Shown in pieces: positions 5,895 to 57,916 of a stretch of DNA of 64,000 bases. Position numbers and translations under genes: made by a program. The stretch comes from Candidatus Harrisonbacteria bacterium CG10_big_fil_rev_8_21_14_0_10_40_38. Lineage in GTDB: Bacteria > Patescibacteriota > Minisyncoccia > UBA6257 > 1-14-0-10-40-38. The stretch spans positions 34,739 through 98,738 of the forward strand of contig PFAZ01000009.1 of assembly GCA_002773535.1 (NCBI GenBank), in the 5' to 3' direction. A model generated the notes under the pieces. That model had not been told where the DNA came from, searched no databases, and worked only from the letters and a program-made list of their open reading frames with translations. How positions within the stretch are numbered: the stretch's first letter is position 1; every line of letters starts with the position of its first letter.

Positions 5895-6458
5895 ATGGAC
5901 AAATTAGTTATAGATATAGAAACATCAAATACGTTTGCAGATGTCGGAGGTCATAGAAATGTGGCTGATCTTTCTGTTTCCCTCGTGGGAATATATTCGT
6001 ATTCAAACGATAAATTTCATGCTTTTTATGAACACAATCTTGCTGATGCAGCTCCCCTTTTACAGTCTTGTGGTTTGCTAATTGGCTTTGCGATAAATAG
6101 GTTTGACGTGCCGGTTTTAAATAAACATTATCCGTTTAATCTTTTTTCGCTTCAGAGACTTGATTTACTTGATGAGATTGAGCTTTCGAGTGGAAGAAGA
6201 ATTAGTTTAAATATTTTGGCGAAGGCTAATTTAGGGGTTGAAAAAACTCACCATAGCCTTGAAGCAATTGATTTATACAGAGATGGAAAGTTTGACGAGT
6301 TAAGAGATTATTGTCTTACTGACGTGAAAATAACTAGGGATTTGTACGAACTCGCAAAAAAACAGGGATATTTAATCGTTCCTGATAAATTTTCAAACGA
6401 ACCACAAAAAATCGAACTCTCTTGGGAAGAACAAGCTTTCCCCGCAACTCTTTTTTAG
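5895..6458 (+). CDS. DEDDy-type 3'-5' exonuclease (RNase H-like superfamily, standalone DnaQ/PolB-exo-like domain)
   Basis: 187 aa. Exo I motif VIDIETSN, Exo II motif GFAINRFDVPVLNKHY, Exo III motif YCLTDVKITRDLYE. Confidence 0.6.
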   Translation: MDKLVIDIETSNTFADVGGHRNVADLSVSLVGIYSYSNDKFHAFYEHNLADAAPLLQSCGLLIGFAINRFDVPVLNKHYPFNLFSLQRLDLLDEIELSSGRRISLNILAKANLGVEKTHHSLEAIDLYRDGKFDELRDYCLTDVKITRDLYELAKKQGYLIVPDKFSNEPQKIELSWEEQAFPATLF

Positions 6459-7396
6459 TTTTTTATATAACCTTCCAATCTCTTAACTCCTTCTTTTAAC
6501 ACCTCTTCTTTTTTTGCTTCGACGTTTAGGCGAAGGAGGTTTTCTGTGTTTGATGGCCTTACACTAAACCACCACATATTTTCTCCTTCACCACATTCAA
6601 TACGAATGCCGTCCAAGTTGTTTGAATTTTTTATTTCGCTTATAAAAGCGTTTTGAATTTTTTCTATTATTATCTGCTTGTCGCTGACTTTGTAATTTGT
6701 TTCTGGGATTCTATAGGTTTTGAGGGATGATTTTTCCCACTCGCTTAGACTCGTGTTTTTTTCTTTTAATTTACTTAGAGCATTTAACATACTCATTGAA
6801 GCGCGCAGACCTGAATCGGCATATAAAAAATCTTTAAAATAATAATGACCGGAAACTTCAGCGCCAAAGGCAATATCTTTTTCTCTCATCATTTTTTTTA
6901 TGAAGTAGTGGCCTACGCGACAGTCTATAACAGATCTATTATTTTCTTTTAGCCATTCTCTAATTGGATAGCCGCTTCGAACATCTATGATTACCGGTCC
7001 ATTAAACTCTAATGCAATGAGTATGGCTGCTTTGTCGGGGTGAATTTCATCGCCTTTGTTATCTATAAAAAAAACCCTGTCCTCGTCAGCGTCTACAATG
7101 ATGCCTATGTCTGCATTTTGTTTTTTTACTTCTTGTTTTAAACCCTCCATCGCGCCTTCTTTTAGGGGGTTGGGGCCATGAGCGGAAAAATTAGGGTCGG
7201 GTGTTTCGTTTATTAAAATTATCTCTAAATTGTTTGGATTGAGGTTTTTTAGCTCTTCAAGAACGATGCCTGCTGTACCGTTTGATAAATCAAAAACCGC
7301 TTTTATCTTACTTGTCAGATTTAACCGACTTTGTAGAAATTTTGCATATTCTTTTGTGTAGTTTGTGTTGTTCATATCTTGAGTCAAGTATATCAA
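6455..7396 (-). CDS. phosphoglucomutase/phosphomannomutase, C-terminal fragment (alpha-D-phosphohexomutase domains II-IV). The gene is split from its N-terminal domain by a ~1.2 kb insertion.
   Basis: 313 aa. Segment YAKFLQSRLNLTSKIKAVFDLSNGTAGIVLEE matches the start of PGM/PMM domain II. Metal-binding loop IVDADEDRV. ORF-track start is TTG at 7394-7396; the first ATG is at 7373-7375. No obvious Shine-Dalgarno sequence. Confidence 0.7.
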   Translation of the reverse strand: MIYLTQDMNNTNYTKEYAKFLQSRLNLTSKIKAVFDLSNGTAGIVLEELKNLNPNNLEIILINETPDPNFSAHGPNPLKEGAMEGLKQEVKKQNADIGIIVDADEDRVFFIDNKGDEIHPDKAAILIALEFNGPVIIDVRSGYPIREWLKENNRSVIDCRVGHYFIKKMMREKDIAFGAEVSGHYYFKDFLYADSGLRASMSMLNALSKLKEKNTSLSEWEKSSLKTYRIPETNYKVSDKQIIIEKIQNAFISEIKNSNNLDGIRIECGEGENMWWFSVRPSNTENLLRLNVEAKKEEVLKEGVKRLEGYIKN

Positions 7397-7531
7397 TATT
7401 TGCCGTGGCTGTGCCTACCCCTTTACATATTTATTTATTTGGTGCTATGTTTTTTGTAGTTCTTGTTGGCTTCTTGGCTATACAAGTTTTCATGTTCATT
7501 GATAAAACCTAAGCCTCATGGAGGGCTTGTC

Positions 7532-8122
7532 GTGAGAATAACTCAAATATTGATTCTTGTTGTTTTTGTCGTTTGTGGTGTTTGTTTTTTTAACGGCCTT
7601 AAGACAAGGCGAATACCCGAAACAAAAAAGGAGGAATATCGCGAACTTCCTGTAACAGAGGTGGTGGGCGCGCCCACAAACGAGGAGGAGAGCAGGGTCG
7701 CCGTTCCTTTGGATGAGCCTGTGGTGGCAAAGAGTGAAGTGACTACCAATAATGAGGAGCAAAAAAAAGAAACCTTTCAAAATGATGAAATGGAAAGACG
7801 AGCTTATCTCATTGACGAGTGCAAAGCTGCTCTCAAATCTATCACGACTGAGAGCCTTGATGCATTCAATAATTCGGGTAGTGAAGAAGAATCGAAAGCG
7901 CAGCTGCGAAGATTTGATGATATGAAGAATGCGACATTGTGGGGATATTTCCCTTGGGCGCCGTCGATTGTGGAACAGAGAAGGTATGTTCTGTTAACTG
8001 GAAAGTACCCTCTTATTTCTAGTGAATTTAGGGAGTTGGAGAATAATTGCTTCAGTGATGCTGAGGCATGGGGAACTCTCAAACAGAAGATCGAAAACCT
8101 CAAACAGGAGAACAAAGAATGA
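7532..8122 (+). CDS. hypothetical membrane-anchored protein (insertion cassette gene 1)
   Basis: RBS GGAGGG (7520-7525), 6-nt spacer, then GTG at 7532. N-terminal TM ITQILILVVFVVCGVCFF, then an acidic/hydrophilic domain. Stop TGA at 8120-8122 overlaps the next start (ATGA). The ORF track extends further upstream to 7463. Confidence 0.5.
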   Translation: MRITQILILVVFVVCGVCFFNGLKTRRIPETKKEEYRELPVTEVVGAPTNEEESRVAVPLDEPVVAKSEVTTNNEEQKKETFQNDEMERRAYLIDECKAALKSITTESLDAFNNSGSEEESKAQLRRFDDMKNATLWGYFPWAPSIVEQRRYVLLTGKYPLISSEFRELENNCFSDAEAWGTLKQKIENLKQENKE

Positions 8123-8568
8123 AAATTGCTCACCGGTTCGCTTCCCTCTCCATCGTTCTTTCCATCTTCTTCGCCCTCACGCCCATTCTTCGGGCTGATG
8201 ACGGCCTCAAGGGAAAGAGTGTTTCCTACACCGGAAACGCAATTACCTTCACCGTGTCGTTCGGTCCGGAGGTCAACGGAACCTCGACTGCCCTCATCTC
8301 TGGAACGATTGATGGCAAAGACTTCGTTGCCGCTGCGTGGGTGCGTCAACTGGACGACGGCATGTTGGCGCTGTGTTCGGCGCCGGGGTCGGATGAACTG
8401 CCAGTGATCGAGGTAGGCGATCCTCCAAGGGTGAAGAAATACCGCTTTAACCCATGGATCGATCCGACTGAATTCGGTCAGGATGAGCCCTTTCCCGGCG
8501 GAGGTGTTCAAGACGTAGGAAATCGAGGTCCCGTGAGGTACCGACCTTTAAGAGGGAGGAGTACGTAG
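8119..8568 (+). CDS. hypothetical small secreted protein, GC-rich (insertion cassette gene 2)
   Basis: ATG at 8119 in an ATGA overlap with the upstream stop, which suggests translational coupling. Signal peptide MKIAHRFASLSIVLSIFFALTPILRA with a cleavage-like site before DDG. Codon usage is much more GC-rich than in the rest of the window. Confidence 0.55.
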   Translation: MKIAHRFASLSIVLSIFFALTPILRADDGLKGKSVSYTGNAITFTVSFGPEVNGTSTALISGTIDGKDFVAAAWVRQLDDGMLALCSAPGSDELPVIEVGDPPRVKKYRFNPWIDPTEFGQDEPFPGGGVQDVGNRGPVRYRPLRGRST

Positions 8569-8596
8569 AAAAAGCGTGTCGTGTACTGCGGTTTCT

Positions 8597-8640
8597 GCAG
8601 GCGAGTAATTGTATTTTTACTTTACTCGCCTGTTTTTTTT
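8597..8640 (+). terminator. rho-independent terminator of the inserted cassette
   Basis: Hairpin CAGGCGAGTAA ... TTACTCGCCTG followed by TTTTTTTT. The 3' arm of the hairpin overlaps the stop codon (8622-8624) of the truncated PGM N-fragment on the opposite strand. Confidence 0.7.
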
Positions 8641-9017
8641 ATAAGACTTAATATCTCCGTGCCGCTCACCGGTATGGCATTTTTTTCTACAACTTTACAA
8701 CCATTAAATTCAGGCGGGTTATGAGAAGCCGTTATCATAACACCACCTTCAGCATCCAGCTTGCCTACTAAAAAATAAAGCATGGGCGTTGTAGAGAGGC
8801 CTATTTCTATGACTTCTCTAACACCTACTTTTTTAAGGCCACTGACCATTGATTCTGATAGGCTTTTTGAACCGTTTCTTGCATCAAAACCGACAATGAT
8901 GCGGTTTTTTCCAATTCTTTCTGGGAGGGAGTTTCCGATTTTTTCCACAACTTCTTCATCTATTTCAGTTGGATAAATGCCTCTTATGTCGTAAGCTTTA
9001 AAAATATTTTCATTCAT
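8622..9017 (-). CDS. phosphoglucomutase/phosphomannomutase, N-terminal fragment (domain I with active-site serine loop)
   Basis: 131 aa. MNENIFKAYDIRGIYPTEID...GGVMITASHNPPEFNGCKVV contains the TASHNP phosphoserine loop. The last residues KKTGE and the stop are encoded by the T-run and hairpin of the inserted terminator. Confidence 0.75.
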   Translation of the reverse strand: MNENIFKAYDIRGIYPTEIDEEVVEKIGNSLPERIGKNRIIVGFDARNGSKSLSESMVSGLKKVGVREVIEIGLSTTPMLYFLVGKLDAEGGVMITASHNPPEFNGCKVVEKNAIPVSGTEILSLIKKTGE

Positions 9018-18120: not shown

Positions 18121-19668
18121 ATGCCTTCAAGTAAGACTGCCAAAGTTTTTTCTGCGGAGCTTGAGGGAATAGAATCTAAACTTATCGAAGTGGAGACCGA
18201 TATAAATGTCGGTCTTCATTCTTTTACGATTGTAGGATTGGCTGATAAGGCATTGTCGGAAGCAAAAGAGAGAGTTAACTCTGCCTTAAAAAATATCGGC
18301 GTTAAACCGCCATCAAAAGAAAACAGACGGATTGTAGTAAATCTTGCGCCTGCAGATTTTAAAAAAACCGGATCTCATTATGACCTACCGATAGCTGTTG
18401 GGTATCTTCTTGCAACCGGACAGATGCTTTCGGAAAATATGGATGATGCGATATTTGTCGGAGAGCTTGCTCTAGATGGAAGACTTCGTCCTGTAAATGG
18501 AGTGCTTAGCATTGCTGGGCTCGCAAAAAAATTATCAAAGACTCTTTATGTGCCACAAGAAAATGCATCCGAGGCCTCTATAGTTTCGGGAATTACTGTT
18601 GTACCTATTCCAGATTTAAAATCTCTTATTGATCACGTTGAAAGAAGAGATAAAATACAACCGCACCCTCACACAGTTCCTTCTTTTCCTGAGTCGAGTT
18701 TAGATATTGATATTTCAGAAATCAAAGGACAAGAACATGCTAAGCGCGCTTTGATTATCGCAGCGTCGGGTGGACACAATTTACTCATGGTCGGACCGCC
18801 GGGAACTGGTAAATCAATGTTAGCGCAGGCTCTTATCTCGATACTGCCGCCGCTTTCACACGAAGAGATAATAGAGACAACAAAAATTTATAGCGCGGCT
18901 GGTCTTTTAGGCGGACAGCCATTTATTGGCAGAAGACCATTTAGAACACCTCATCAATCAGCCTCTCTCCCTGCAGTTGTTGGCGGTGGCCAATCTCCAA
19001 AACCTGGAGAAGTGAGTCTTGCTCATAGAGGAATATTGTTTTTAGATGAATTGCCTGAATTTAGACGTGATGTGCTTGAGGCATTGAGACAACCCATTGA
19101 AAATGGCAGAGCCAATATATCGAGAGTTAAGGGCACTCTTTCGTTGCCTGCAAAATTTACTTTAATAGCCGCTATGAACCCTTGCCCATGTGGTTACTGG
19201 GGAGATCCTGATACAGAATGTAATTGCGCCGCAACAGATATAACCAGATACCAAAGAAGACTTTCTGGTCCTCTGCTCGATAGAATAGATTTACAAATTC
19301 ATGTTCCGCGCGTGCCGCTTGAGAAACTTCGCTCAATAAATATTAATCCCCAAGAATCACATGTTTTTAAATCGAGTGTGATTAGCGCAAGAAAAAGACA
19401 ATCTGAAAGACTTAAAAAAATTCATAAAATAACAAATGCGGAATTATCCTCAAAGGAATGTGATTCGATGATACAACTCGAAAATGGAGTTGGTGAATTC
19501 CTGACTAAAGCATCCGATAAGTTAAAACTTTCAGCGAGAGCGTATTATAGAACTCTTAAAGTAGCACAAACAATTGCTGATATAGAAAATTCTGATACGG
19601 TGTCACAAGCTCATATCGCTGAAGCCTTTAGTTATAAACTAAAAGAGCACGAATTAGGTGCTCTTTAA
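18121..19668 (+). CDS. YifB/ComM-family Mg-chelatase-like AAA+ ATPase
   Basis: 515 aa. Lon-like N-terminal domain (FTIVGLADKALSEAKERV), Walker A GPPGTGKS, and ChlI-type C-terminus. Confidence 0.85.
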   Translation: MPSSKTAKVFSAELEGIESKLIEVETDINVGLHSFTIVGLADKALSEAKERVNSALKNIGVKPPSKENRRIVVNLAPADFKKTGSHYDLPIAVGYLLATGQMLSENMDDAIFVGELALDGRLRPVNGVLSIAGLAKKLSKTLYVPQENASEASIVSGITVVPIPDLKSLIDHVERRDKIQPHPHTVPSFPESSLDIDISEIKGQEHAKRALIIAASGGHNLLMVGPPGTGKSMLAQALISILPPLSHEEIIETTKIYSAAGLLGGQPFIGRRPFRTPHQSASLPAVVGGGQSPKPGEVSLAHRGILFLDELPEFRRDVLEALRQPIENGRANISRVKGTLSLPAKFTLIAAMNPCPCGYWGDPDTECNCAATDITRYQRRLSGPLLDRIDLQIHVPRVPLEKLRSININPQESHVFKSSVISARKRQSERLKKIHKITNAELSSKECDSMIQLENGVGEFLTKASDKLKLSARAYYRTLKVAQTIADIENSDTVSQAHIAEAFSYKLKEHELGAL

Positions 19669-34025: not shown

Positions 34026-34979
34026 CTATTTTTTATCTCTTCGCCTTGCGTGAAACGCGCGGTGGATGTCTTTAAGCTCCTTGTTTGTAAGGTGGGTGTA
34101 CACTTGTGTTGTTGAGATATGACTATGCCCGAGGAGTTCCTGAACCGATCTTAGGTCAGCGCCATTTACAAGAAGATCTGTTGCAAAGAGATGTCTGAAA
34201 CTGTGCGGCGTTACACGTGAGCCAACACCTGCTTTTCTGGCGTATTTTGTTACCAAGCGTTCAACAGAGCGCGGAGAAATTTTTCCCATAACGCTCCCCT
34301 GTTTTGAAATACTAATAAACAGCGCCTCTTCTGTGTCTACTCTTTTTTTTAGATATTCTTTAATTGATTCTTTAGCGCCGTCGGAGAGAAAAACTACGCG
34401 GATTTTACTCCCCTTTCCTCTGACACTTACCTCTCCCCGATCAAGATCGATGTATCTGCCAAGACTGCAGAGCTCGGAAAGTCGAAGACCTGTAGAAAAT
34501 AATGTTTCTAAAATTGCTCTGTCGCGAAGTGAGCGGAGGTTTTTTCCCTCTGGTGAATTTAATATTCTTTCGAGATCTCGGGCATCGAGCATCTCGATTT
34601 CTCTATCCGGTAGTTTGGGAAGCTCAACTTCATCTGGCGCTGCTGGTGTGTGTCCTTTTTTAATCAGGTATCTTAAAAAATTTCTGATGGCGATAGCATA
34701 ATAACTTTGGGTGCTTTTTTTGAGCTCAATCCCTTCTTCTGTTTTTGATCTTGCAAGCTTAAGACGAAAATTTCTGATAGTGTCTACCGTTATATCGCTT
34801 GGCTTAGATATGTTTTCCTCTTTGAAAAATCTTTTAATATATCTATCATAGTTATCCCTAGTGCGAAGGGATCTATTTTTTTCTATCTCAAGATAATCAA
34901 GATATTCTTTTAGAGATTTTTCTGCTTCTGTCATAGTTGTCTTATATATACATATAAGTATACGACAATGGTGAATCAA
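34026..34979 (-). CDS. tyrosine-type site-specific recombinase (XerC/XerD family)
   Basis: 317 aa. N-terminal core-binding domain. C-terminal catalytic motifs HSFRHLFAT, LLGHSHISTTQVYTHL. Its 3' end abuts tRNA-Leu. Confidence 0.8.
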   Translation of the reverse strand: MIHHCRILICIYKTTMTEAEKSLKEYLDYLEIEKNRSLRTRDNYDRYIKRFFKEENISKPSDITVDTIRNFRLKLARSKTEEGIELKKSTQSYYAIAIRNFLRYLIKKGHTPAAPDEVELPKLPDREIEMLDARDLERILNSPEGKNLRSLRDRAILETLFSTGLRLSELCSLGRYIDLDRGEVSVRGKGSKIRVVFLSDGAKESIKEYLKKRVDTEEALFISISKQGSVMGKISPRSVERLVTKYARKAGVGSRVTPHSFRHLFATDLLVNGADLRSVQELLGHSHISTTQVYTHLTNKELKDIHRAFHARRRDKK

Positions 34980-35021: not shown

Positions 35022-35093
35022 ACCAGTGCGTCAAGTGGTTCTTTGTCACAGACACTTGTGCGCTTTTGTTTACTTATTCCATCACGAAGAATT

Positions 35094-36929
35094 ATGAAAT
35101 TACTATATAAAAATATTTTTTGGTCAATTACCACTCTTTTAATCATAGCTGTGCTTTTTTCTCTTTTACTGGAAGGCGGACAGAGTAAGGACACAATCAC
35201 TTTAAATAAGCTTGCTGAGAGAATAAATCAGGGAGATGTTGAGAGAATCATAGTTACTGGCAATGAGCTTGATGTTGATTTTAAAGATGGAACAAGCGCG
35301 GTTTCACAAAAGGAACCCGGTGTGAGTGTTACGGAACTTTTTGCGAGTTACGGCGTAGATCCAGAAACTCTTAGGTCTTTTTCTTTAGAAATAAAAGATG
35401 AGTCTGGAACACAATTTTGGCTTGGAGTTCTTATACCAACTCTTCTTCCTGTAATTATTATCGTGATTATTTTCTGGATAATATTTAAACAGGCGCGCAC
35501 GGGGTCATCACAAGTTTTCAGTTTTGGGAAATCAAACATAAAACTTTCCTCGCCACATAAAGACAGAGTGACATTCGCAGACGTAGCCGGACTTGAAGAG
35601 GCAAAGCAGGAGTTAGAGGAGGTTGTTGATTTTCTAAAGCATCCGAAAAAATTCCTTGACGTTGGAGCGAAGATCCCACGCGGTGTGCTTCTTATGGGAA
35701 GCCCAGGAACTGGAAAGACTCTTCTTGCCAGAGCTACTGCAGGAGAAAGCGGAGTCCCCTTCTTTCATATTTCCGCTTCAGAATTTGTTGAAATGTTTGT
35801 AGGCGTAGGAGCGTCTAGAACACGCGATGCGTTTGCTACTGCAAAAAAAGCGGCGCCATCAATCTTGTTTATAGACGAAATTGATGCGATTGGACGGGAA
35901 CGCGGTGCTGGACTTGGCGGTGGGCACGATGAGCGCGAACAAACTCTTAATCAGATACTTGTAGAAATGGACGGATTTGATAGAGATACAAAGGTTATCG
36001 TAATGGCGGCAACAAACAGGGCTGATATTCTTGATTCCGCCCTTCTTCGACCGGGACGTTTTGACAGAAGAGTTGTTCTTGATTTACCAGACTTAAAAGA
36101 CCGTGAAGCAATTCTTAAAATTCACGCAAAAGATAAACCGCTTGATGACAAGGTTGAGCTTAAGGTTGCGGCTATTAGAACCCCCGGCTTTTCTGGCGCT
36201 GACCTCGCAAATTTGATTAACGAAGCGGCAATTCTTGCGGCGCGTAATAATAGAAAAACTATTATTCAAAGCGATGTGCTTGAATCTATTGAAAAGGTGC
36301 TTCTTGGTCCAGAAAGACGTGGTCGTGTGATTTCAGATCGCGAAAAAAAGATTACAGCTTATCATGAGGCTGGACACGCACTTGTTACCGCAAGTCTTAA
36401 AGACTCTGATCCGGTACATAAAATATCTATTGTGAGTCGAGGACGAGCCGGTGGATACACGCTTAAGTTGCCGAGTGAAGATATGCATCTTAGAACACGA
36501 TCCCAATTTTTGAGCGATCTTGCAATCATGATGGGTGGATACAGCGCTGAAAAAGAAGTCTTTGGAGATATATCTACAGGAGCTTCAAATGATCTTCGTG
36601 AAGCGTCATCTTTGTCTCGAAGACTCGTTACTAAATATGGTATGAGTGATTTAGGTCCAATCACGTTTGGTAAATCCGAAGAGATGGTTTTCTTAGGAAA
36701 AGAAATTGCTGTTGATAAAGACTATTCAGAGACAATTGCGACAAAGATAGATATCGAAGTTCAGAAGTTTATTAAAATGGCTCACATGGCGGCAGAAAAA
36801 ATCGTATCAACTCACCGCGCTGTTCTTGATGCAGTTGCTAAAGCTCTTCTTGAAAAAGAAACTCTGGAGCAGGAGGAGTTTTATGAAATCATAAAAGGAT
36901 TTGATTTGAAACAAATATCGGTTGCGTAA
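35094..36929 (+). CDS. ftsH: ATP-dependent zinc metalloprotease FtsH
   Basis: [18 protein letters not shown] (Walker A), SRF motif, HEAGHALV zinc site. The ORF track starts at 35043; the likely start is ATG 35094 ([10 protein letters not shown]...). Confidence 0.9.
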
Positions 36930-36990: not shown

Positions 36991-37204
36991 TATTTATTTG
37001 TGAGCCTGCCTGGAATCTCACGCGCTCCGCAATGCGGGGCTTTTAAAACCCCTCGGTTTTAATGTTTCCGCCACGGTAAAACAAGTGTTTTCCCGACCCC
37101 TGCCTGCCGGCAGGCAGGCCTTTCCTGTTCGAATCGCATTCAAATAATTTTTATAAGATAGATCCTGTTAAGTAAAAATATATTTATTTGTGCGCCTGCC
37201 TGGA
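36991..37204. repeat. 24-nt direct repeat of the tRNA 3' end (36991-37014 and 37181-37204, one mismatch), flanking a decayed tRNA-like remnant and a 20-bp perfect palindrome
   Basis: tatttatttgtgAgcctgcctgga versus tatttatttgtgCgcctgcctgga. The sequence between them contains GATTCCAGGCAGGCTCAC (a degenerate tRNA T-arm/acceptor read on the minus strand), the palindrome cctgcctgccggcaggcagg (37099-37118), and GGGGCTTTTAAAACCCC. Confidence 0.6.
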
Positions 37205-37262
37205 TTCGAACCAGGGGCCAATGCCTTATAAGAGCACTGCTCTGCCACTGAGCTACAGGCGC
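37191..37262 (-). tRNA. tRNA with an Ile-type anticodon loop and anticodon UAU (putative tRNA-Ile reading AUA)
   Basis: Read on the minus strand: GCGCCTG TA GCTC AGTGGCA GAGC A GTGCT CTTATAA GGCAT TGGCC CCTGG TTCGAAT CCAGG CAGGCGC A. The loop CTTATAA gives anticodon UAU. The loop is identical to the E. coli tRNA-Ile(GAU) loop except at position 34. Confidence 0.75.
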
Positions 37263-37491: not shown

Positions 37492-37563
37492 GGGCGCTTA
37501 GCTCAGTGGCAGAGCGACTCGTTTACACCGAGTAGGCCGTGGGTTCGATCCCCTCAGCGCCCA
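37492..37563 (+). tRNA. tRNA-Val (anticodon UAC)
   Basis: GGGCGCT paired with AGCGCCC. D-arm GCTCAGTGGCAGAGC. Anticodon stem ACTCG/CGAGT with loop TTTACAC. T-loop TTCGATC (one T-stem mismatch). Confidence 0.8.
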
Positions 37564-37586
37564 CAAAACAATTCTCAAATATTTGT

Positions 37587-42916: not shown

Positions 42917-44200
42917 ATGAATTTAAATAATTTCAGAAAAAAAATTGGTTTGTCTTTTGTTTATGCATTGTTTTCGGTTTTGTTTATATCTGGATTAGTA
43001 GCTTATGCATATTGGGTTGATCCACTAAGTAATAGCGGGAACATAAGAGCTCCTATAACAACAAGTAGCAGTGGTCAACTTAGAGAGGGGACTCTTACTG
43101 TTGGCGCGATTTCTGTTATGGGTGGAGCTAATACAGGTAAAGTCGTTCTTACAAATAGGGGAACCAATGGCCTTCCTTCTGATGGCGAGTTGGGAACGGC
43201 GAGGTTGTATGTCGAAGGAGATGTGAGAGTGGATAATTTAATAATACCTAATAGAGATCAGGGCTCGGATCCGAGCGACCACCTTCATAAACAAGTTCTT
43301 ACACTCACTGACAAAGATTCTGATTCTTGGGATCCCTGGCATCCTTCAATGGCGTGGGAGCCACAGCTTGCGTGGCTGACAATTGTTTCTAGGGAAAAAT
43401 TGCCTGGTAATTCATGTGGTGATGGAGTGTGCACTGACCCGGAAAACGCTGTCACGTGTCCAAAGGATTGCAGTAGTCAATGTCCATTACCGGGGACACC
43501 GGGTTGGGACGGAAATCAATTTACTTGCATACAACCATATTGCGGTGACTCTGTTTGTCAGAGAGTTGCGGGCTATTTTGAAAAGCCGGCTGGAGCGCCT
43601 GGCCCTGGTAATGTGTGCTTGAATGATTGTGGAACGTGGAGCGGTGATGAATTTCCGCCTGTCTATCCAGGAGGTTTTTGCGGAGATGGCATAGTACAAA
43701 GCGGTGGACCGAGATTTGAGCAATGTGATCCACCGGGAACATCTAGGTGGTATACTCATCCAAACGGCTTGGATTGTCTTGTTGGGTGTTCTGATATATG
43801 TACTGCGTTTAGCTGGTGCGGAGTTTTTCCACCCCCACCACTTGATGGAACACCGACGCCAACTCCATCGCTCGATCCTACGCCAACGCAATCGCCAACT
43901 ATCACTGATTGTAATGACTCCGACTCAGCACTCTCATGTGGAGAGAGGAGATGTGGTAGACCAAGTGAGGTTTGTGTGTCTGTGGGAAGTTCGTGTAGGT
44001 GCCAAGGAACTGGTGGTGGAGTAGAGAGAGACGCGCCGTCAAATCTTGCTTCGTTTATTGATGTGGCTAAGGCTCAAACAAGTTGTGATAACTTGGCTCT
44101 TCCGCAGTTTTGTTCTGATGGATGGCTTGAGCAGGGTCTTTATTGTGACAATGGATCAAATCCGGCATGGGTCAGGGTTTGTTATAGACCAATTGAATAA
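42917..44200 (+). CDS. hypothetical Cys-rich secreted protein with a Pro/Thr linker (paralog family A N-terminus)
   Basis: 427 aa. N-terminal TM helix. GTARLYVEGDVRVDNLII motif. Many Cys residues (CGDGVCTDPENAVTCPKDCSSQCP). Linker TPTPTPSLDPTPTQSPT. Confidence 0.5.
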   Translation: MNLNNFRKKIGLSFVYALFSVLFISGLVAYAYWVDPLSNSGNIRAPITTSSSGQLREGTLTVGAISVMGGANTGKVVLTNRGTNGLPSDGELGTARLYVEGDVRVDNLIIPNRDQGSDPSDHLHKQVLTLTDKDSDSWDPWHPSMAWEPQLAWLTIVSREKLPGNSCGDGVCTDPENAVTCPKDCSSQCPLPGTPGWDGNQFTCIQPYCGDSVCQRVAGYFEKPAGAPGPGNVCLNDCGTWSGDEFPPVYPGGFCGDGIVQSGGPRFEQCDPPGTSRWYTHPNGLDCLVGCSDICTAFSWCGVFPPPPLDGTPTPTPSLDPTPTQSPTITDCNDSDSALSCGERRCGRPSEVCVSVGSSCRCQGTGGGVERDAPSNLASFIDVAKAQTSCDNLALPQFCSDGWLEQGLYCDNGSNPAWVRVCYRPIE

Positions 44201-44208
44201 AATTCAAT

Positions 44209-45342
44209 ATGAACAGATTTAAATATTTAATAACGTTCTTATCGCTCGCTTCAGTCGCTTTGTTTTTTGTAGTTTTAACTGCTTCCGCTAGTCATTATGG
44301 AGGTCAGGGTAACACAACGACTGGATGGCTCTGGGGAGGATCAACAAATAGTTCCGAGCAGGGATGTAGCGGTATTGGCGCAGGAGCTGATTGTGGAGCT
44401 TTGGGTTGGGGGAGCGCGACTTATTTAAACGGTGGGCTTGTACTTAACGAGCATGAATATGGTCTTTCTATTCCGGATTCCACTTGCAGTGGATTAGGAT
44501 GCAATATTATTGGTGGTGTGTGGTTTTCAAATGTTGGTTGGGTAAATTTTCAACCGGCTGGAGGCTTTCCATCTGGGGGATGCAATCCTGCATGTCCAAA
44601 CCATGGGGTTAAGAGATCGGGCAACGGTATTATAGGTTGGGCTAGGGTTGAGAGCATTCGTGAGGCAGCGGCTGGTTCTCCACCAAATAATGGTGGCTTT
44701 AGTGGATGGATTAAGATGAGTGGGATTGCCCAAAATAGTTCTTCTTACGGAGTGTCGATTTCACCAGAAGGCCACCTTGGAGGCAAGGCGTGGTCAGATG
44801 AATTTGGATGGATTGATTTTGATGTTAACTATAGTGGAGGAGGTCCTCCGCCACAGAGCTACTGCAATCCTACTAACTTTACGTGTGACCCGAATTTAAC
44901 GAGTGGCGTGCCATGTACGAGCAATAATGAATGCGATGCTTATGTCCACTATCAATGTGTGAATCAGGATTGTAGACAAGTATGGGGGGATCCGGGAGAT
45001 CCAGATACCTGTTCAAGCCCCAATGACTGTAATGGAGGCGGAGGAGGTCTTGTAGTGACATGTTCCGGAGCACCTGACCCAGCGTTTCTATCTAAAGGAG
45101 GGGACGTTACATGGACGCCTGTTGTAACCGGTGGTCAGGGAGATATAACTTACGCGTGGACATTTATGCCGCCTCCTGCAACACGAACTGATCTTGGGGG
45201 AGGAAAAGTACGCGCAGTTTATGATTCAACTGGTGTTAAAGATGCTTCAGTAACTGCAACGGATGAAGATGGTTTAATAGGCTCTGGTGATTGCTCTGTA
45301 AATATGAGGTGGTCACAGCTTCAGGAGACGATTCCTTTCTAA
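44209..45342 (+). CDS. hypothetical secreted protein with Gly/Trp-rich repeats and a C-terminal PKD domain
   Basis: 377 aa. Signal peptide or TM helix. Repeated GW..F motifs (GGVWFSNVGWVNF, FGWIDFDV). C-terminal GGDVTWTPVVTGGQGDITYAWTF is PKD-like. Confidence 0.5.
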   Translation: MNRFKYLITFLSLASVALFFVVLTASASHYGGQGNTTTGWLWGGSTNSSEQGCSGIGAGADCGALGWGSATYLNGGLVLNEHEYGLSIPDSTCSGLGCNIIGGVWFSNVGWVNFQPAGGFPSGGCNPACPNHGVKRSGNGIIGWARVESIREAAAGSPPNNGGFSGWIKMSGIAQNSSSYGVSISPEGHLGGKAWSDEFGWIDFDVNYSGGGPPPQSYCNPTNFTCDPNLTSGVPCTSNNECDAYVHYQCVNQDCRQVWGDPGDPDTCSSPNDCNGGGGGLVVTCSGAPDPAFLSKGGDVTWTPVVTGGQGDITYAWTFMPPPATRTDLGGGKVRAVYDSTGVKDASVTATDEDGLIGSGDCSVNMRWSQLQETIPF

Positions 45343-46633: not shown

Positions 46634-46954
46634 ATGAGCTTTATTAATGTACACTATTACTATTTTTTTTTCAAAAAAAACGAGGCCTGCTTTGCGCAAG
46701 GCCCCTATGGAACAGGGCTTTCGGCCCTGGGGTGATATAGAGTTGGTTGTGAAGTAGCTGATCTAATGATAACGCATTTGAAGAGCCGTACAAGGACGGG
46801 GTGTGGATAAGTTTAGATGGTGATAGGAGTTGTATACCAAAGCAGTCTCATAATCCGTTTAAGAGCTTATTAAATAATATTGATTGAGGTTATGGTAATG
46901 ATTTTGGGTTTACCCTGAGTGAGCCTTGTTTATAAAACAAGGCGAATCAAAGGG

Positions 46955-47231
46955 TGCCTGGGCGGTGAATCGAACACCGGACGCCAGCCTCTTCCGAGAG
47001 TTGGACTATATCATCATCCCGTAATTACGGGAGCTGGGCGCTTGTGCGAGTTTATTGTTGGGACTCACCCGCTAGTCTCTACACCTTCCGGAAAACCTAT
47101 GCCCTTTCCGGCTTGGCTCGGGATTGTACTTTAAAAAGTCTTTCCCCGAATTCACCCAGTTTTTAATCATGTATTACTACAAGATGCCCCAAAGAGTTTA
47201 GGGCTGCGCTCTACCACTGAGCTACCCAGGC
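46955..47231 (-). tRNA. intron-containing tRNA: exons assemble into tRNA-Phe (GAA); a 205-nt group I intron is inserted between positions 33 and 34
   Basis: Exon 1 is 47200-47231: GCCTGGG TA GCTC AGTGGTA GAGC G CAGCC CT. Exon 2 is 46955-46994: GAAGA GGCTG GCGTC CGGTG TTCGATT CACCG CCCAGGC A. Standard numbering places the junction at U33|G34, giving the loop CUGAAGA. Confidence 0.7.
46995..47199 (-). ncRNA. group I self-splicing intron (small, about 205 nt) within the tRNA anticodon loop
   Basis: In tRNA orientation: P1 is exon GCCCU paired with IGS GGGGC, with a U.G pair at the splice site. P10 is exon-2 GAAGAG paired with CTCTT. P7 strands are ...GGTGTAGAGACTAGCGGG... and ...GATATAGTCC.... 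P8 hairpin CTCCCGTAATTACGGGA. The intron ends ...CTCG with omega-G. Segments AATTCGGGGAAAG and CCCGAGCCAAGC resemble small bacterial tRNA introns; this is from memory. Confidence 0.7.
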
Positions 47232-51985: not shown

Positions 51986-53443
51986 TTAATCCAAAATCTT
52001 AAGTATTGGATCGTAATGTTTGAGGGTCTTCTTACTTATTGAGACACCGTAGACGAGCGGAGAAAGGAAGAAAAATAAGCCCGCGATAAGACAGACGTAG
52101 GTCATGTAGCTTATGGCTATTTTTTTTGATTTAAACCCGAGTTTTCCTGCGAACGAATGGTTGGTTTCTTTAATATTTTTATCTTCAAAAAAGGAATCGT
52201 ATAAAAGCGCTGTAATCAGAGAAGCAAAAAGAAGGGGTGGGAGATAATGGTAGAGAAAGGCAACTCTGCTTATGCCTATAAATGGAAGATAGTTCCCTAT
52301 AAACCCGACTGTAAAGAAAAGAAGGGGGAGTGTTACCCTTTTTCTGGCCCATTTTATTTTAAGAGCAGCAAGAAGCATGAGGATGGCGAGCGCAACCGAT
52401 GCGGAAGCAGTCCACCAAATAATAGGGTTTGCAATAAGATAAACATTTGCGACATTGTCTCCCTCTGTTTTTGTCCAATACCACGCAGTTCTTCTCCCGA
52501 ATGGCCACTCTGACCATTTACTTGAGTATGGGTGTGTTGCTGTTATGCCTGCGCTATAGTTATACATCGCTTTTGTAAGCTCTGAAAATTTTCCCCAAAA
52601 TCCGAGGGGTTCTATGTCTTCGCCGACTTTATTGCCTTCAAGAGTTTTTTGAAATTCCTGACTCATGTAAGCGTCTCCGGGACCGGATTTTTTAAGTAAG
52701 GAAAAATGAATCGCAATTGAGCCGGAATAAACGATAAAAGGAATGATAAGAAGTATGACAAATTTGAGGATAGTTTTTTTGAAACTGAAATTTTTTATTG
52801 AATCGATAAGCGCCATAAATAGTATAAGGGCGAGAAATGCTATGGCGGTGTATTTTACACTAGCTGCGGCGCCGGCAAGGGCGGCGGAGGAGGCGAGCCA
52901 AATGTATTTATGCTTTTCATTGTTTCTTGAGCGAAAATAGCAAAATATAGCGAATACTCCAAAACAAATAAAGAAACTGTCAGTAAGAATAAACCTTGAT
53001 TGGCCAAGGATGGCGGTATCAAAAAGAAGGAGAGAGCTACCAAGAAATGCTGCGCGCTTTGACGCTTTTATTTCTCGAAGGAGGAGATACGCGCCTATTG
53101 GAATGAGAGCTCCCATAAATGCCGGGAGAAAGCGCAGAGCAAAAAAAGTTTTGGGGTCAAACCCGCTGCCGATTTCTTTAAAAACACCTTCTATTTCATC
53201 AAGTCTGTCTATGCCCATCATCGATGCGAAGCCGGCAATCATCATCTTGGCGAGTGGGGGATGGATATCAAAATAGTATTCGTGAATTACATACGCTGCG
53301 GCAAATTTCCCAAAATAAATCTCATCAAACACCACCTCCGGTGGGGTAGAGAGAAAAATAAATCTAGTAGCAAATGATAAAACTACTAAAGAAATAAAGG
53401 CTATATGTTTTTTATAACTTTTCATTGAGCTGTAGTATAGCAC
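51986..53443 (-). CDS. dolichyl-phosphate-mannose-protein mannosyltransferase-like glycosyltransferase (GT39/PMT family)
   Basis: 485 aa polytopic protein. VVFDEIYFGKFAAAYVIHEYYFDIHPPLAKM is the DE-x-YF/HPPL signature of PMT/ArnT-like GT-C enzymes. Confidence 0.75.
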   Translation of the reverse strand: MLYYSSMKSYKKHIAFISLVVLSFATRFIFLSTPPEVVFDEIYFGKFAAAYVIHEYYFDIHPPLAKMMIAGFASMMGIDRLDEIEGVFKEIGSGFDPKTFFALRFLPAFMGALIPIGAYLLLREIKASKRAAFLGSSLLLFDTAILGQSRFILTDSFFICFGVFAIFCYFRSRNNEKHKYIWLASSAALAGAAASVKYTAIAFLALILFMALIDSIKNFSFKKTILKFVILLIIPFIVYSGSIAIHFSLLKKSGPGDAYMSQEFQKTLEGNKVGEDIEPLGFWGKFSELTKAMYNYSAGITATHPYSSKWSEWPFGRRTAWYWTKTEGDNVANVYLIANPIIWWTASASVALAILMLLAALKIKWARKRVTLPLLFFTVGFIGNYLPFIGISRVAFLYHYLPPLLFASLITALLYDSFFEDKNIKETNHSFAGKLGFKSKKIAISYMTYVCLIAGLFFFLSPLVYGVSISKKTLKHYDPILKILD

Positions 53444-55515
53444 TTAATTCTTAGGATTTTACGGTCACTGTTTTCATAGACAATTTTACCAAGTTTATTT
53501 ATTGATTCTTCTGTAATAGTGCCAAATGCTTTTTCCAAACCAGAATCAATAAGAATAAAATCTACATTTTCGCTACATGCCACACTTAAATCTCCTTGTA
53601 TTATTTTTTTGGCGTTCTCTCTGGCGTTTCCATACTCAAGACCATGAGACCAAAGCCAACCATCGTAGCCCATAAAAACTTTTCTTCCGGAAAGAAAAAG
53701 CGGTATTGGGTCAATTGATGTATCTGTAAGAAAAAGATCGTTGGGATTTGTGTTTTTTTCTATCCATGATGCTACTTCCAGAGCATCTCTTGACCCGTCT
53801 ATATACCCTGATGACTTTGCATTTGCATCGCCGGTTAACTTACTTAAGACATCTACTGATCCTGCTATTAACCCGAAAAATATTATTAAGCCAACAATTA
53901 TTTTAAATAAAACATTTTTCTCCCACATTTTTTTTAAAAAGGGGACTACTAGAAAAATTATTGCCAATGTCCACCAGTAGAAAAACATTTTCCCATTATC
54001 AAAATCCCATGGTTGAAGCAAAAAAAGATTGGGGACTAAAAATAACATGGCAGATGCCGCTACCCATTTACTGTTTTGAATTCCAAAATTTATTTTTGTT
54101 AGCCATTTTGTAGAATATGCGACTAATAGCGTTGACCAAATAAGAAACATAACTCCGAAATTGTTTATCCAAAACCATAGCGCATTTGAATTCGTACCCG
54201 GCTCTGGAGAGCACTTGATCCACGAGGTTCTATGGACACAAGTCATCCACCCAAACCATGGCTTTAAGAAGCTGTCACCTAAGGCATTTGCTGGATTCGT
54301 AAAGAAAAATATAAGCATTGGAACTGCGATCGCTGTGGTTATTAAACCTAAATAAATCCATGCTTTCCATTGTTTTAGATGCCAAAAGAATAAAGTCAAA
54401 AGAACGATAAAAAGGGAAAGGAAGGTGTGACCGTGAACGAAAGGCATTGCGCCTGCTACAAACCCATATCGCCACCATTGTTTTTCCTTTCCGTATGTTA
54501 CAACTCCAAGCATTATTAATAGGAACATTCCAAACCCCCAAATAAAACTTCTTTGGTGAGCGAGAAAGGAAACCACGGGAACTATCCAAACAATATTGTC
54601 GTTTGTGTTATGAGATGAAGTTATTTTTCCACCGGTTCTGTTATCTAGATGAGTGTATTCGTGTGGCGGATTACTTATAAACTCGTTTATATTACTGAAT
54701 TGATTTTGGCTATACTCGTCTTTTATATCCCTCCACAGCGAAGTGAATCCTAAGCCACTACCTAAAAGAATGAGGAGTAGGGCTATAACTGCGAATCTTT
54801 GAGATTTTGATATCCCCTTAGCTAGTGAAAAACAAAGAATAAAAGCTGATACGCCACCTAGAATAATTGGGATTTGATATGCTAATACAATATTTGCTCC
54901 TAAAAAGTGAAGGATGCTGGATGAAAAATCTATAAGAAATGGATATACAAGCCTTGAATTTGCTAGGAGTGGATGCGCTAAATTAAACGGACTGGTAGCT
55001 GAAAATCTTTTTATAAAATTTACATGGAGCGCATTATCGCCCCAACCCGGCATCATGGATCGAAGCTCTCCATTGGGACCAACGTGAAACATTCTTAAGA
55101 GGTACCATGTATACAAACCGATAATTAATATAAGGGCTATAATTATTCCGATATTTTTAAAATATTTTTTTTGTATTTTTATTTTTTTTAATTTTCTAAA
55201 AAAATTGAAAATACTATTCCAGCGTAAAGCTATTATTATAAAAAAAAGAATTTCATAAATCGTGATTGCTAGTGACTGAGATTTAGTGATGAGACTGCCG
55301 ATTAAAAAAATATATGAACTGGCTATTTGCCCAATCAGAATCGTTCCTGCTGTTTTTTCTAAAATAGAAAATTTACCAAGAGGATCAAGCCAGTTTATAA
55401 TTAGCGCTCCAAATAAAAATGTTGAAAGCGTTAGTGCTATTGCGCTTATCATGATGTTTTTATTTATGATACTCAAACATATAAAAAGAGGCGAGCCCCG
55501 AAATTCGGGGCTCAT
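53422..55515 (-). CDS. large polytopic membrane protein (putative GT-C-type glycosyltransferase or related) with a C-terminal soluble domain
   Basis: 697 aa, with at least 12 predicted TM helices. Adjacent to and co-oriented with the GT39 gene. No confident family match from motifs. Confidence 0.35.
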   Translation of the reverse strand: MSPEFRGSPLFICLSIINKNIMISAIALTLSTFLFGALIINWLDPLGKFSILEKTAGTILIGQIASSYIFLIGSLITKSQSLAITIYEILFFIIIALRWNSIFNFFRKLKKIKIQKKYFKNIGIIIALILIIGLYTWYLLRMFHVGPNGELRSMMPGWGDNALHVNFIKRFSATSPFNLAHPLLANSRLVYPFLIDFSSSILHFLGANIVLAYQIPIILGGVSAFILCFSLAKGISKSQRFAVIALLLILLGSGLGFTSLWRDIKDEYSQNQFSNINEFISNPPHEYTHLDNRTGGKITSSHNTNDNIVWIVPVVSFLAHQRSFIWGFGMFLLIMLGVVTYGKEKQWWRYGFVAGAMPFVHGHTFLSLFIVLLTLFFWHLKQWKAWIYLGLITTAIAVPMLIFFFTNPANALGDSFLKPWFGWMTCVHRTSWIKCSPEPGTNSNALWFWINNFGVMFLIWSTLLVAYSTKWLTKINFGIQNSKWVAASAMLFLVPNLFLLQPWDFDNGKMFFYWWTLAIIFLVVPFLKKMWEKNVLFKIIVGLIIFFGLIAGSVDVLSKLTGDANAKSSGYIDGSRDALEVASWIEKNTNPNDLFLTDTSIDPIPLFLSGRKVFMGYDGWLWSHGLEYGNARENAKKIIQGDLSVACSENVDFILIDSGLEKAFGTITEESINKLGKIVYENSDRKILRIKCYTTAQ

Positions 55516-57448: not shown

Positions 57449-57916
57449 TTATTTAAAGGCAAGCTTTCTTTCGGTTTCCAGTTTTCCGTGACTTATTGTT
57501 ATCCACTTGGCGTTTTTGGGTATTATTTTTTTTATTCTATCGGCCCATTCAATAATGACTATATTTTCAGGGTTATTGAGGATCTCATAAAATCTTATGA
57601 CCTCGAGTTCTTTTATTTCTTTTATTCTATAACAATCTACGTGATATAAGGTTTTGAAATTTTTTATTTTTTTAGATATTGAGTAGGGTTTAAATATAAC
57701 AAATGTTGGACTGGTTACTTTTTTTATACCCAAAGATTTTGCGAAGCCTTTTGTGAATGCGGTTTTGCCTGCGCCAAGATCACCGACGAGAGCTAAAACA
57801 AATGCATTTTCTGATTTTTTCTTTTTTACTATTTCGAGCGCGAGTTTTTCCGCTATCTGGCTTGTTTCCTTTTCCTCTTTTGTAAAATGAGTATTTTTAG
57901 TTTTCTCCTTCTTCAT
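57449..57916 (-). CDS. tsaE: tRNA threonylcarbamoyladenosine biosynthesis protein TsaE
   Basis: 155 aa. Walker A LALVGDLGAGKTAFTKGFAK ... SPTFVIFKPY ... YHVDCYRI. Confidence 0.85.
   Translation of the reverse strand: MKKEKTKNTHFTKEEKETSQIAEKLALEIVKKKKSENAFVLALVGDLGAGKTAFTKGFAKSLGIKKVTSPTFVIFKPYSISKKIKNFKTLYHVDCYRIKEIKELEVIRFYEILNNPENIVIIEWADRIKKIIPKNAKWITISHGKLETERKLAFK

Follow-up and report, generated by a model that had tools for sequence, protein, structure and literature searches.

How is the codon AUA read in a bacterium whose genome encodes a tRNA-Ile with the anticodon UAU? The canonical bacterial solution is tRNA-Ile2(CAU), the C34 of which is converted to lysidine by TilS. For the 64,000-nt stretch of DNA analysed here (the window), an initial annotation made from the sequence alone had proposed a tRNA-Ile with a UAU anticodon and, with it, AUA decoding independent of TilS. 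The question raised by this locus is whether such a tRNA supplements the lysidine system or stands in for it, both in the host and in the clade to which the host belongs.

A tRNA-Ile(UAU) gene in a Patescibacteria chromosome

The window covers a region of housekeeping genes on a bacterial chromosome with a GC content of ~40% and encodes FtsH, RecG, a XerC-like recombinase, YraN, NrdJ, FtsK, RecA, NusA, an H+-PPase, PNPase, S1, GyrA, ClpP, trigger factor, TsaE, RuvB and RuvC. JGI and ENA metagenome contigs with identical proteins also bear T4SS-pilin genes. Among the GTDB species representatives, the closest FtsH proteins are those of Patescibacteria MAGs (Ca. Paceibacterota, 65%; Jorgensenbacteria, 60%; Minisyncoccales, 59%). 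A reduced genome had been hinted at in the initial annotation, and the best FtsH matches place the organism in the CPR; judged from its sequence, the host is a Paceibacteria-like member of the Patescibacteria (CPR).

ARAGORN called a tRNA-Ile(tat) on the minus strand at 37190-37262, and the Rfam model RF00005 matched 37191-37262 of this strand over its full length (1-71/71) with 72.7 bits (gathering score, 29; E 5.6e-14). Thus, both the isotype and the anticodon proposed at the outset were recovered, and the Rfam coordinates are identical to the proposed ones, with the strand now given as minus. The 72-nt gene (37191..37262, minus strand), which is supported by ARAGORN, Rfam, its own sequence and covariation in 25 homologues, can be parsed as GCGCCUG/UA/GCUC/AGUGGCA/GAGC/A/GUGCU/CUUAUAA/GGCAU/UGGCC/CCUGG/UUCGAAU/CCAGG/CAGGCGC/A, in which all four stems (7, 4, 5 and 5 bp) are intact. 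Its anticodon occupies positions 37228-37230 of the window and lies in the loop CUUAUAA (C32, U33, U34-A35-U36, A37 and A38), just as the initial annotation had read it; the discriminator is A73, and CCA is not encoded. The single-sequence MFE fold (z = -2.6) recovers the acceptor and T arms but forms wrong pairs in the D and anticodon arms, so that the evidence for the cloverleaf is the covariance model together with the covariation in the 25 homologues. ARAGORN, Rfam, the parse and the covariation all agree on a canonical cloverleaf with a genomically encoded UAU anticodon, and the gene is thereby confirmed as real and intact.

The identity elements of E. coli IleRS are A73, A35, U36, t6A37, A38, U12-A23 and C4-G69. 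When this set was taken as the Ile identity elements, A73, A35, U36, A37, A38, U12-A23 and C4-G69 were all found in the tRNA-Ile(UAU) sequence, with G29-C41 replacing C29-G41. A BLAST comparison with the annotated E. coli tRNAs was uninformative, giving weak matches (77-81%) to tRNA-Arg genes that occur in 18 of 5,426 genomes. A scan for sigma-70-type promoters revealed no site directly upstream of the minus-strand gene, the sigma-70 model being not informative for CPR bacteria.

The gene lies between ftsH and recG/yraN, 264 nt beyond the stop of ftsH (35043..36929, plus strand; TIGR01241 FtsH, 775 bits), which served as the synteny anchor. It is accompanied by its conserved neighbour, a tRNA-Val(UAC) gene called by ARAGORN at 37492..37564 on the plus strand. 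On the other side of ftsH, where outgroups have tilS, a XerC-like recombinase gene is found (34026-34979, minus strand). A repeat search further detected, at 36991..37017 on the minus strand, a 27-nt partial copy of the tRNA 3' end with its 3' flank. This copy matches the original (37181-37207) at 25/27 positions, lies at a distance of 190 nt from it and is possibly a rearrangement or an att-like scar. The spacer at 36991-37190 was considered as the site of a second or decayed tRNA, but no tRNA was detected in it at E <= 10, and its fold was unremarkable. A GC palindrome in this spacer occurs once in the window.

A37 following U36 is the standard site of t6A. A component of the t6A37 machinery, tsaE, is encoded in the window at 57449..57916 on the minus strand (Pfam PF02367 TsaE, 117 bits), and was the only tRNA-modification component seen. 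This machinery should act on A37 in tRNAs that read ANN codons, with tRNA-Ile(UAU) as one of its presumed substrates.

Conservation of the gene and the meaning of AUA

Among the best 80 ftsH loci from GTDB genomes, 22 carried a tRNA-Ile(tat) downstream of ftsH, at a distance of <=120 nt in 10 and <=1 kb in 16 of these 22 loci. The next gene is often a tRNA-Val, as in the window, and the order ftsH - tRNA-Ile(UAU) - tRNA-Val was found in L003, L004, L005, L007 and L009. One of these, L007, is a MAG of the Minisyncoccales, the group to which the cultured relative Minisyncoccus belongs (PMC12281837). A DNA pattern for this type of tRNA recovered 21 of the 22 UAU loci and no other locus among the fetched set. 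When metagenomes were searched with this pattern, independently of ftsH, at least 120 loci were obtained; 17 of those listed contain ftsH, and the tRNA in these 17 mostly lies between -6 and about 2,200 nt past the ftsH stop.

An alignment of the 22 UAU tRNAs with three neighbouring CAU tRNAs (25 in total) was used to examine covariation. Paired cells made up 98.7%, and compensatory double changes were seen at 17 of the 21 pairs, giving a covariation score of 0.773, as compared with 0.187 for shuffled alignments and at most 0.14 with slid partners, a difference well above chance. No variation occurs in the alignment at U8, A14, G18-G19, C32, U33, A35, U36 and A37, in the T loop or at A73. Moreover, in an unbootstrapped NJ tree of this single protein, the FtsH of the window and those of all 22 UAU loci formed one clade, with every tilS locus outside. 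Conservation, covariation and the single FtsH clade together exclude that the gene is a pseudogene or was acquired sporadically.

The initial annotation had called for a check of AUA codon usage, and this revealed heavy use: in 26 confidently annotated ORFs of the window (11,559 codons), AUA had a frequency of 34.5 per 1000 codons and supplied 39.5% of the Ile codons. For Borrelia burgdorferi, which has been put at the upper end for bacteria, the value is 39 per 1000 (PMC12514573). At matched GC, the median share of AUA among Ile codons was 0.28 in the UAU loci versus 0.12 in tilS-bearing CPR loci (p = 4e-4), the latter group consisting of only five loci; several CPR loci of unassigned decoder type are likewise AUA-rich.

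The CPR is known for changes of the genetic code, such as UGA=Gly in Gracilibacteria/Absconditabacteria, and the meaning of AUA was therefore tested by aligning the ftsH codons of the UAU clade against sequences from outside this clade only. The 230 AUA codons of the clade faced mainly I (39%), V (19%) and L (15%) in the outgroup, and at strongly conserved outgroup columns they corresponded to Ile 53 times, Val 13 times, Leu 8 times and Met not once. This profile is indistinguishable from that of AUU/AUC, whereas AUG differs, with Met at 87 conserved columns. On this alignment evidence, AUA is Ile in the UAU clade. Since AUA is both an Ile codon and heavily used, an efficient AUA decoder is indispensable.

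tilS and tRNA-Ile2(CAU) beside ftsH and in complete genomes

In many bacteria, tilS is located just upstream of ftsH. Six CPR loci (L011, L012, L018, L026, L036 and L050) and nine outgroup loci, mostly Chloroflexota-type MAGs, were found to have an ORF with the PP-loop motif that abuts the start of ftsH. The five of these that were scanned with NCBIfam TIGR02432 (L011, L012, L018, L026 and L036) are all TilS, with 170-197 bits against a cutoff of 93.6. In tilS loci, a CAU tRNA sits downstream of ftsH. The L036 copy lies 79 nt past the ftsH stop; it shares 85.9% identity with E. coli tRNA-Ile(CAT) and has the same anticodon arm, which also occurs in the L011 tRNA. Thus, the canonical tRNA-Ile2(CAU)/TilS system is present in L011, L018, L026 and L036, which lie outside the UAU clade.

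The window locus has the anticodon TAT and no local TilS. A TilS HMM built from the five TIGR02432-confirmed loci gave no match anywhere in the 64-kb window, the UAU loci or another 240 loci of viral and metagenome origin. No tilS was detected in about 20 kb of window flanks (L083 and L087), and ARAGORN identified no CAU tRNA within the 64-kb window. A tRNA split by a group I intron (46985-47209; Rfam) was considered as a hiding place of Ile2(CAU), and in silico splicing yielded tRNA-Phe(GAA). Furthermore, none of the 39 UAU loci with ftsH contained tilS or an Ile2-type CAU tRNA. The inspected extent of the host genome is about 84 kb (window plus flanks), and tilS is presumably absent from the rest of it as well.

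A comparison of gene orders suggests how this state arose. L018 has the order rpsA(S1)-tilS-ftsH-tRNA(CAU), and L003 and L004 have rpsA-ftsH-tRNA-Ile(UAU)-tRNA-Val with an rpsA-ftsH gap of 77-109 nt, which looks like a clean excision of tilS. The simplest reading of these arrangements is that the Ile2 gene beside ftsH acquired T34 and that tilS was then excised. Overall similarity was also tried as a guide to descent from Ile2 or Ile1; it is non-discriminating, the Ile, Val, Lys and Met(CAU) tRNA bodies being 67-72% alike. Because tRNA-body similarity cannot separate the two sources, descent from the CAU gene rests on synteny.

Genome-wide evidence came from Nakagawa et al. 2026 (PMC13011429), whose Table S2 gives per-amino-acid tRNA counts from tRNAscan-SE 2.0 and ARAGORN for 95 complete Patescibacteria genomes. 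ARAGORN labels all CAU tRNAs as 'Met', and the tRNAscan-SE 'Ile' column excludes Ile2; this reading of the columns is based on canonical genomes, which show Ile 1 and Met 1 with tRNAscan-SE versus Ile 1 and Met 3 with ARAGORN. Parsed in this way, 50 of the 95 genomes have one Ile tRNA and at least three CAU tRNAs, 40 have at least two Ile tRNAs and fewer than three CAU tRNAs, five have both extra tRNAs, and none has neither (Fisher p about 1e-21). The class with at least two Ile and fewer than three CAU tRNAs comprises 14/20 Paceibacteria, 12/12 Microgenomatia and 7/7 Dojkabacteria, and the canonical class 34/36 Saccharimonadia and 7/7 JAEDAM01. Accordingly, a second Ile tRNA comes without a third CAU tRNA in 40 of 45 genomes (14 of 15 in Paceibacteria). 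Because the table gives counts and no anticodons, we infer that the second Ile tRNA is UAU; with this identity, the either/or counts are precisely what a replacement of tRNA-Ile2(CAU) by tRNA-Ile(UAU) would produce. The authors of that study make no comment on the Ile/CAU count pattern.

A probable lysidine-independent route for AUA and its alternatives

These results make it probable that tRNA-Ile(UAU) is a dedicated AUA decoder that replaces tRNA-Ile2(CAU) and TilS in a Paceibacteria-like bacterium. The TilS-independent decoding suggested in the initial annotation thus gains support from the reduced-genome CPR host, the heavy use of AUA and its meaning as Ile, the covariation across the clade, the position of the gene where outgroups have tRNA-Ile2(CAU), the missing tilS beside ftsH and the genome counts. 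In the proposed route, U34 would read the A of AUA by Watson-Crick pairing, and because of this direct pairing no C34-to-lysidine conversion would be needed; A37 after U36 would presumably be made t6A by the TsaBDE pathway. By analogy, IleRS must accept the UAU anticodon, and misreading of AUG would be held down by competition from tRNA-Met and/or by the ribosome, as in M. mobile. An IleRS able to charge the UAU tRNA was defined as one with Arg/Lys at the position of E. coli Trp905, or a type-2 IleRS. A motif search for ileS in the window and all fetched loci returned only a LeuRS (L261) and non-CPR ORFs, with no ileS in the window or any fetched CPR locus, and aminoacylation is assumed because the IleRS of the clade was not found there. 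As to the history, the ancestral local order would have been (rpsA)-tilS-ftsH-tRNA-Ile2(CAU); in the clade ancestor, the tRNA downstream of ftsH would have come to have T34 instead of C34 and tilS would have been excised, and AUA may have become a major Ile codon once a decoder with an unmodified anticodon existed. We infer aminoacylation by IleRS, the states of U34 and A37, the avoidance of AUG and the descent from a CAU gene.

The only serious rival is that a functional tRNA-Ile(UAU) coexists with tilS and tRNA-Ile2(CAU) encoded elsewhere in the genome, which we consider unlikely. Such coexistence, which Taniguchi et al. call a 'transition state', is documented in other bacteria, namely Lactobacillus casei and L. 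plantarum (PMC3575796); the host genome has been seen over about 84 kb, and the five of 95 complete genomes with at least two Ile and at least three CAU tRNAs may correspond to this Lactobacillus-type state. However, none of the UAU loci has tilS at the conserved site, with rpsA-ftsH in place of rpsA-tilS-ftsH, and the 0/39 score for tilS or an Ile2-type CAU tRNA in the ftsH-bearing UAU loci, as well as the 40/45 genomes (14/15 in Paceibacteria) with a second Ile tRNA and no third CAU tRNA, speaks for replacement. Far less likely is an accessory tRNA of a phage or mobile element, acquired horizontally and merely boosting AUA decoding, as do tRNA genes of many phages. Genes of phages and giant viruses that resemble tRNA-Ile(UAU) are indeed abundant on viral contigs (at least 120 matches) and share the anticodon loop and general tRNA features; in addition, the 27-nt partial repeat of the tRNA 3' end, at a distance of 190 nt, is att-like, and a tyrosine recombinase gene lies 2 kb from the tRNA. 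Nevertheless, no viral sequence matches the exact tRNA core, and among the matches listed the viral tRNAs reach no more than 81% identity and ftsH occurs in 0/120 viral loci. These viral genes lack ftsH synteny and are accessory decoders, not sole ones, while the tRNA studied here sits in a housekeeping region, from ftsH to recG/yraN, and keeps its adjacency to ftsH across a deep clade, with a divergence that tracks the host and with compensatory changes.

Codon reassignment or mischarging, in which the UAU tRNA would be charged with, for example, Met, as in many mitochondria, and AUA would not be Ile, seems extremely improbable. The code changes in the CPR (UGA=Gly) and the unusually frequent AUA could be taken in its favour, but AUA aligns with Ile/Val/Leu in the outgroups, with Met at 0 conserved columns versus 87 for AUG, and A73 together with the A35-U36-A37 context is compatible with Ile identity. 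Finally, the chance that the gene is a pseudogene or a fortuitous tRNA-like sequence is negligible: the mispaired D and anticodon arms in the lone-sequence MFE fold and the empty sigma-70-type promoter scan directly upstream on the minus strand are outweighed by the full-length 72.7-bit covariance-model match with all stems intact and by strong covariation and invariant functional positions over at least 39 homologous loci.

The preferred reading, replacement of the lysidine system by tRNA-Ile(UAU), has its closest parallel in Mycoplasma mobile, for which an unmodified U34, the IleRS Arg865 and ribosomal rejection of AUG were established by experiment (PMC3575796, Taniguchi et al. 2013); acceptance of UAU by this IleRS depends on Arg865, which replaces the Trp that contacts the wobble base (PMC3575796). 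The two systems share an encoded UAU anticodon with A37, a reduced genome, frequent AUA read as Ile and a tilS that is not detected where expected, and the model of a CAU-to-UAU change followed by tilS loss fits the synteny here. They differ in phylum and in breadth, the trait being common to a deep and species-rich clade here and M. mobile being a single species; furthermore, the three properties named are experimental results for M. mobile, whereas the CPR system is known from its genes. Bifidobacterium and Neorickettsia likewise combine a UAU tRNA with tilS loss (PMC3575796; PMC8450103) and are thought to depend on a horizontally acquired eukaryote-type IleRS2 (PMC3575796). L. casei/L. plantarum, Cyanothece and Ferrimonas have the same kind of tRNA coexisting with tilS (PMC3575796); unlike these, the CPR UAU loci are all without tilS, and the genome counts are nearly exclusive. 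In Bacillus subtilis, a wobble change to U34 in the tilS-suppressor tRNA-Ile1(G34U) makes TilS dispensable (Fabret 2011; Kohrer 2014, PMC3919564). This suppressor is a laboratory mutant derived from tRNA-Ile1(GAU), whereas the CPR synteny points to tRNA-Ile2(CAU) as the source, with tRNA similarity being non-decisive. A parallel from ultra-small symbionts (DPANN) is offered by Nanoarchaeum equitans and Korarchaeum cryptofilum, which have tRNA-Ile(UAU) without agmatidine (PMC8450103); these, however, are archaea, and the enzyme lost is TiaS, not TilS.

Published lists of UAU tRNAs cover nine species (2013, PMC3575796) and 17 bacterial genomes (2021, PMC8450103) and include no CPR organism. The view that such an anticodon is known only in a few reduced genomes, as given in the initial annotation, holds for the literature but not for nature, where the trait is clade-wide in Patescibacteria and genes resembling tRNA-Ile(UAU) are also common on viral contigs. 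Our search for literature yielded no relevant work on lysidine or TilS in the CPR or Patescibacteria; a paper on tRNA introns in Patescibacteria mentions neither UAU nor TilS, and TilS papers from 2025 still describe tilS as present in nearly all bacteria. The mechanism is the known TilS-independent tRNA-Ile(UAU) route, and its clade-wide replacement of the lysidine system in the CPR is apparently undescribed. Within its lineage, there is nothing unusual about the tRNA-Ile(UAU) gene; the interest lies in the lineage-wide replacement, of which this locus gives an unusually clean picture, with the same ftsH-adjacent slot and tilS excised.

Overall, a large bacterial group appears to read AUA without the lysidine system. 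On balance, we favour the broader view that lysidine is not near-universal and that much of Patescibacteria has dispensed with TilS and tRNA-Ile2(CAU). According to the published tRNA counts, this would concern about 40 of 95 complete genomes, among them the majority of the Paceibacteria and every Microgenomatia and Dojkabacteria genome sampled; at least the Paceibacteria-type clade would have done so by in situ conversion of the ftsH-adjacent tRNA and excision of tilS, followed by the rise of AUA. TilS is treated as essential and bacteria-wide, and for this reason as a target for antibacterials and a marker in phylogeny. Should TilS be missing from a major CPR clade, the exceptions would no longer be a few species but would make up a considerable share of bacterial diversity, and tools that use TilS as a completeness or phylogeny marker would be systematically biased for CPR genomes. 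In that case, IleRS, and possibly the ribosome or the modification of U34, would be adapted for telling AUA from AUG, which may represent a new solution with a parallel in DPANN, and the clade would offer many independent combinations of IleRS, ribosome and tRNA for studying the discrimination of AUA from AUG with a plain UAU anticodon.

Inversion and partial repeat of tRNA-Ile(UAU) beside ftsH

The tRNA-Ile(UAU) gene of the window (37191-37262, minus strand) lies on the opposite strand to ftsH (35043-36929), whereas the same gene is on the ftsH strand in 19 of the 22 related genome loci and is inverted only in L032, L033 and L048. Therefore, a local inversion of tRNA-Ile(UAU) occurred in the window's lineage. 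A direct repeat of 27 nt, matching at 25 positions, was also found at 36991-37017 and 37181-37207 (190 nt apart); it comprises the 3' strands of the tRNA-Ile(UAU) T-stem and acceptor stem, A73 and 11 nt of downstream flank. Between the two copies lies a 163-nt spacer, which is not a tRNA but carries a pair of GC-rich palindromes. This partial tRNA copy may represent an att-like scar, or may have been left behind by the rearrangement in which tRNA-Ile(UAU) was inverted.

In two metagenome ftsH loci (L248 and L310), tRNA-Ile(UAU) is located upstream of ftsH, not downstream, and is accompanied by two CAU tRNAs, one initiator-like and the other elongator-Met-like. The set of two CAU tRNAs plus one UAU tRNA thus appears here once more, in a different gene order.

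An intron-split tRNA-Phe and other genes of the window

A tRNA-Phe(GAA) gene not called by ARAGORN was recovered at 46953-47231 (minus strand) by in silico splicing. It is split between U33 and G34 by a 205-nt group I intron (46995-47199, minus strand; Rfam RF00028, 62.6 bits), the removal of which in silico yields a clean tRNA-Phe(GAA). The P1 helix of this intron has a U.G pair at CCCU|AAA, and a P10 can form between the 3' exon GAAGAG and the intron CUCUUU. The relative locus L005 carries a tRNA-His/tRNA-Phe pair in the same arrangement without the intron. According to PMC13011429, group I introns are described in Patescibacteria tRNAs for Asn/Asp (at 35/36), and the 33/34 site is known for fMet and Ile2 tRNAs; tRNA-Phe was not found as a group I intron host in the portion of its tables examined.

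Elsewhere in the window, a phosphoglucomutase/phosphomannomutase is split over 6455-9017 (minus strand, Pfam), with domain I at 8622-9017 (114 bits) and domains II-IV at 6455-7396. The roughly 1.2 kb between them holds two opposite-strand ORFs (7532-8122 and 8119-8568) with no Pfam match, and the arrangement could stem from an insertion, from gene splitting or from gene decay. Several long ORFs of the window also had no Pfam match, such as 53422-55515 (697 aa) and 42917-45342. Small T4SS-pilin (PF18895) gene clusters, a typical Patescibacteria feature, are present at 29.8-30.6 kb of the window and at 19014-19649 of its flank L083.

tRNA-Ile(UAU) variation and tRNA counts across genomes and viruses

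tRNA-Ile(UAU)-like genes are very common on IMG/VR contigs, giant-virus MAGs included (at least 120 matches, L089-L208). They show standard D, anticodon and T-arm features and often lie within arrays that hold as many as 25 tRNA genes.

FtsH groups with Patescibacteria in several GTDB representative MAGs (L009, L013, L014, L016, L017, L022, L023, L034, L039, L041 and L049) that bear the TPA titles 'uncultured Gammaproteobacteria' or 'Candidatus Saccharibacteria'; the record titles are unreliable as taxonomy for these MAGs. Among complete genomes, those of true Saccharimonadia have the canonical set of one Ile and three CAU tRNAs.

In the clade alignment, many tRNA-Ile(UAU) genes (L028, L030, L032, L034, L035, L038, L041, L044, L048, L062 and metagenome loci) have C1-G72 as their first pair rather than the usual G1-C72. 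C38 (loop CUUAUAC) is present in most, whereas A38 (CUUAUAA) is retained in the subclade of the window. These features may have arisen by co-adaptation with IleRS or RNase P.

Table S2 of PMC13011429 lists a single CAU tRNA (ARAGORN) for four Microgenomatia genomes, possibly owing to intron-split genes. Furthermore, at least two Ile tRNAs occur together with at least three CAU tRNAs in 5 of its 95 complete genomes (two ABY1, one Paceibacteria and two Saccharimonadia), which makes these five candidates for a transitional state with both AUA decoders.
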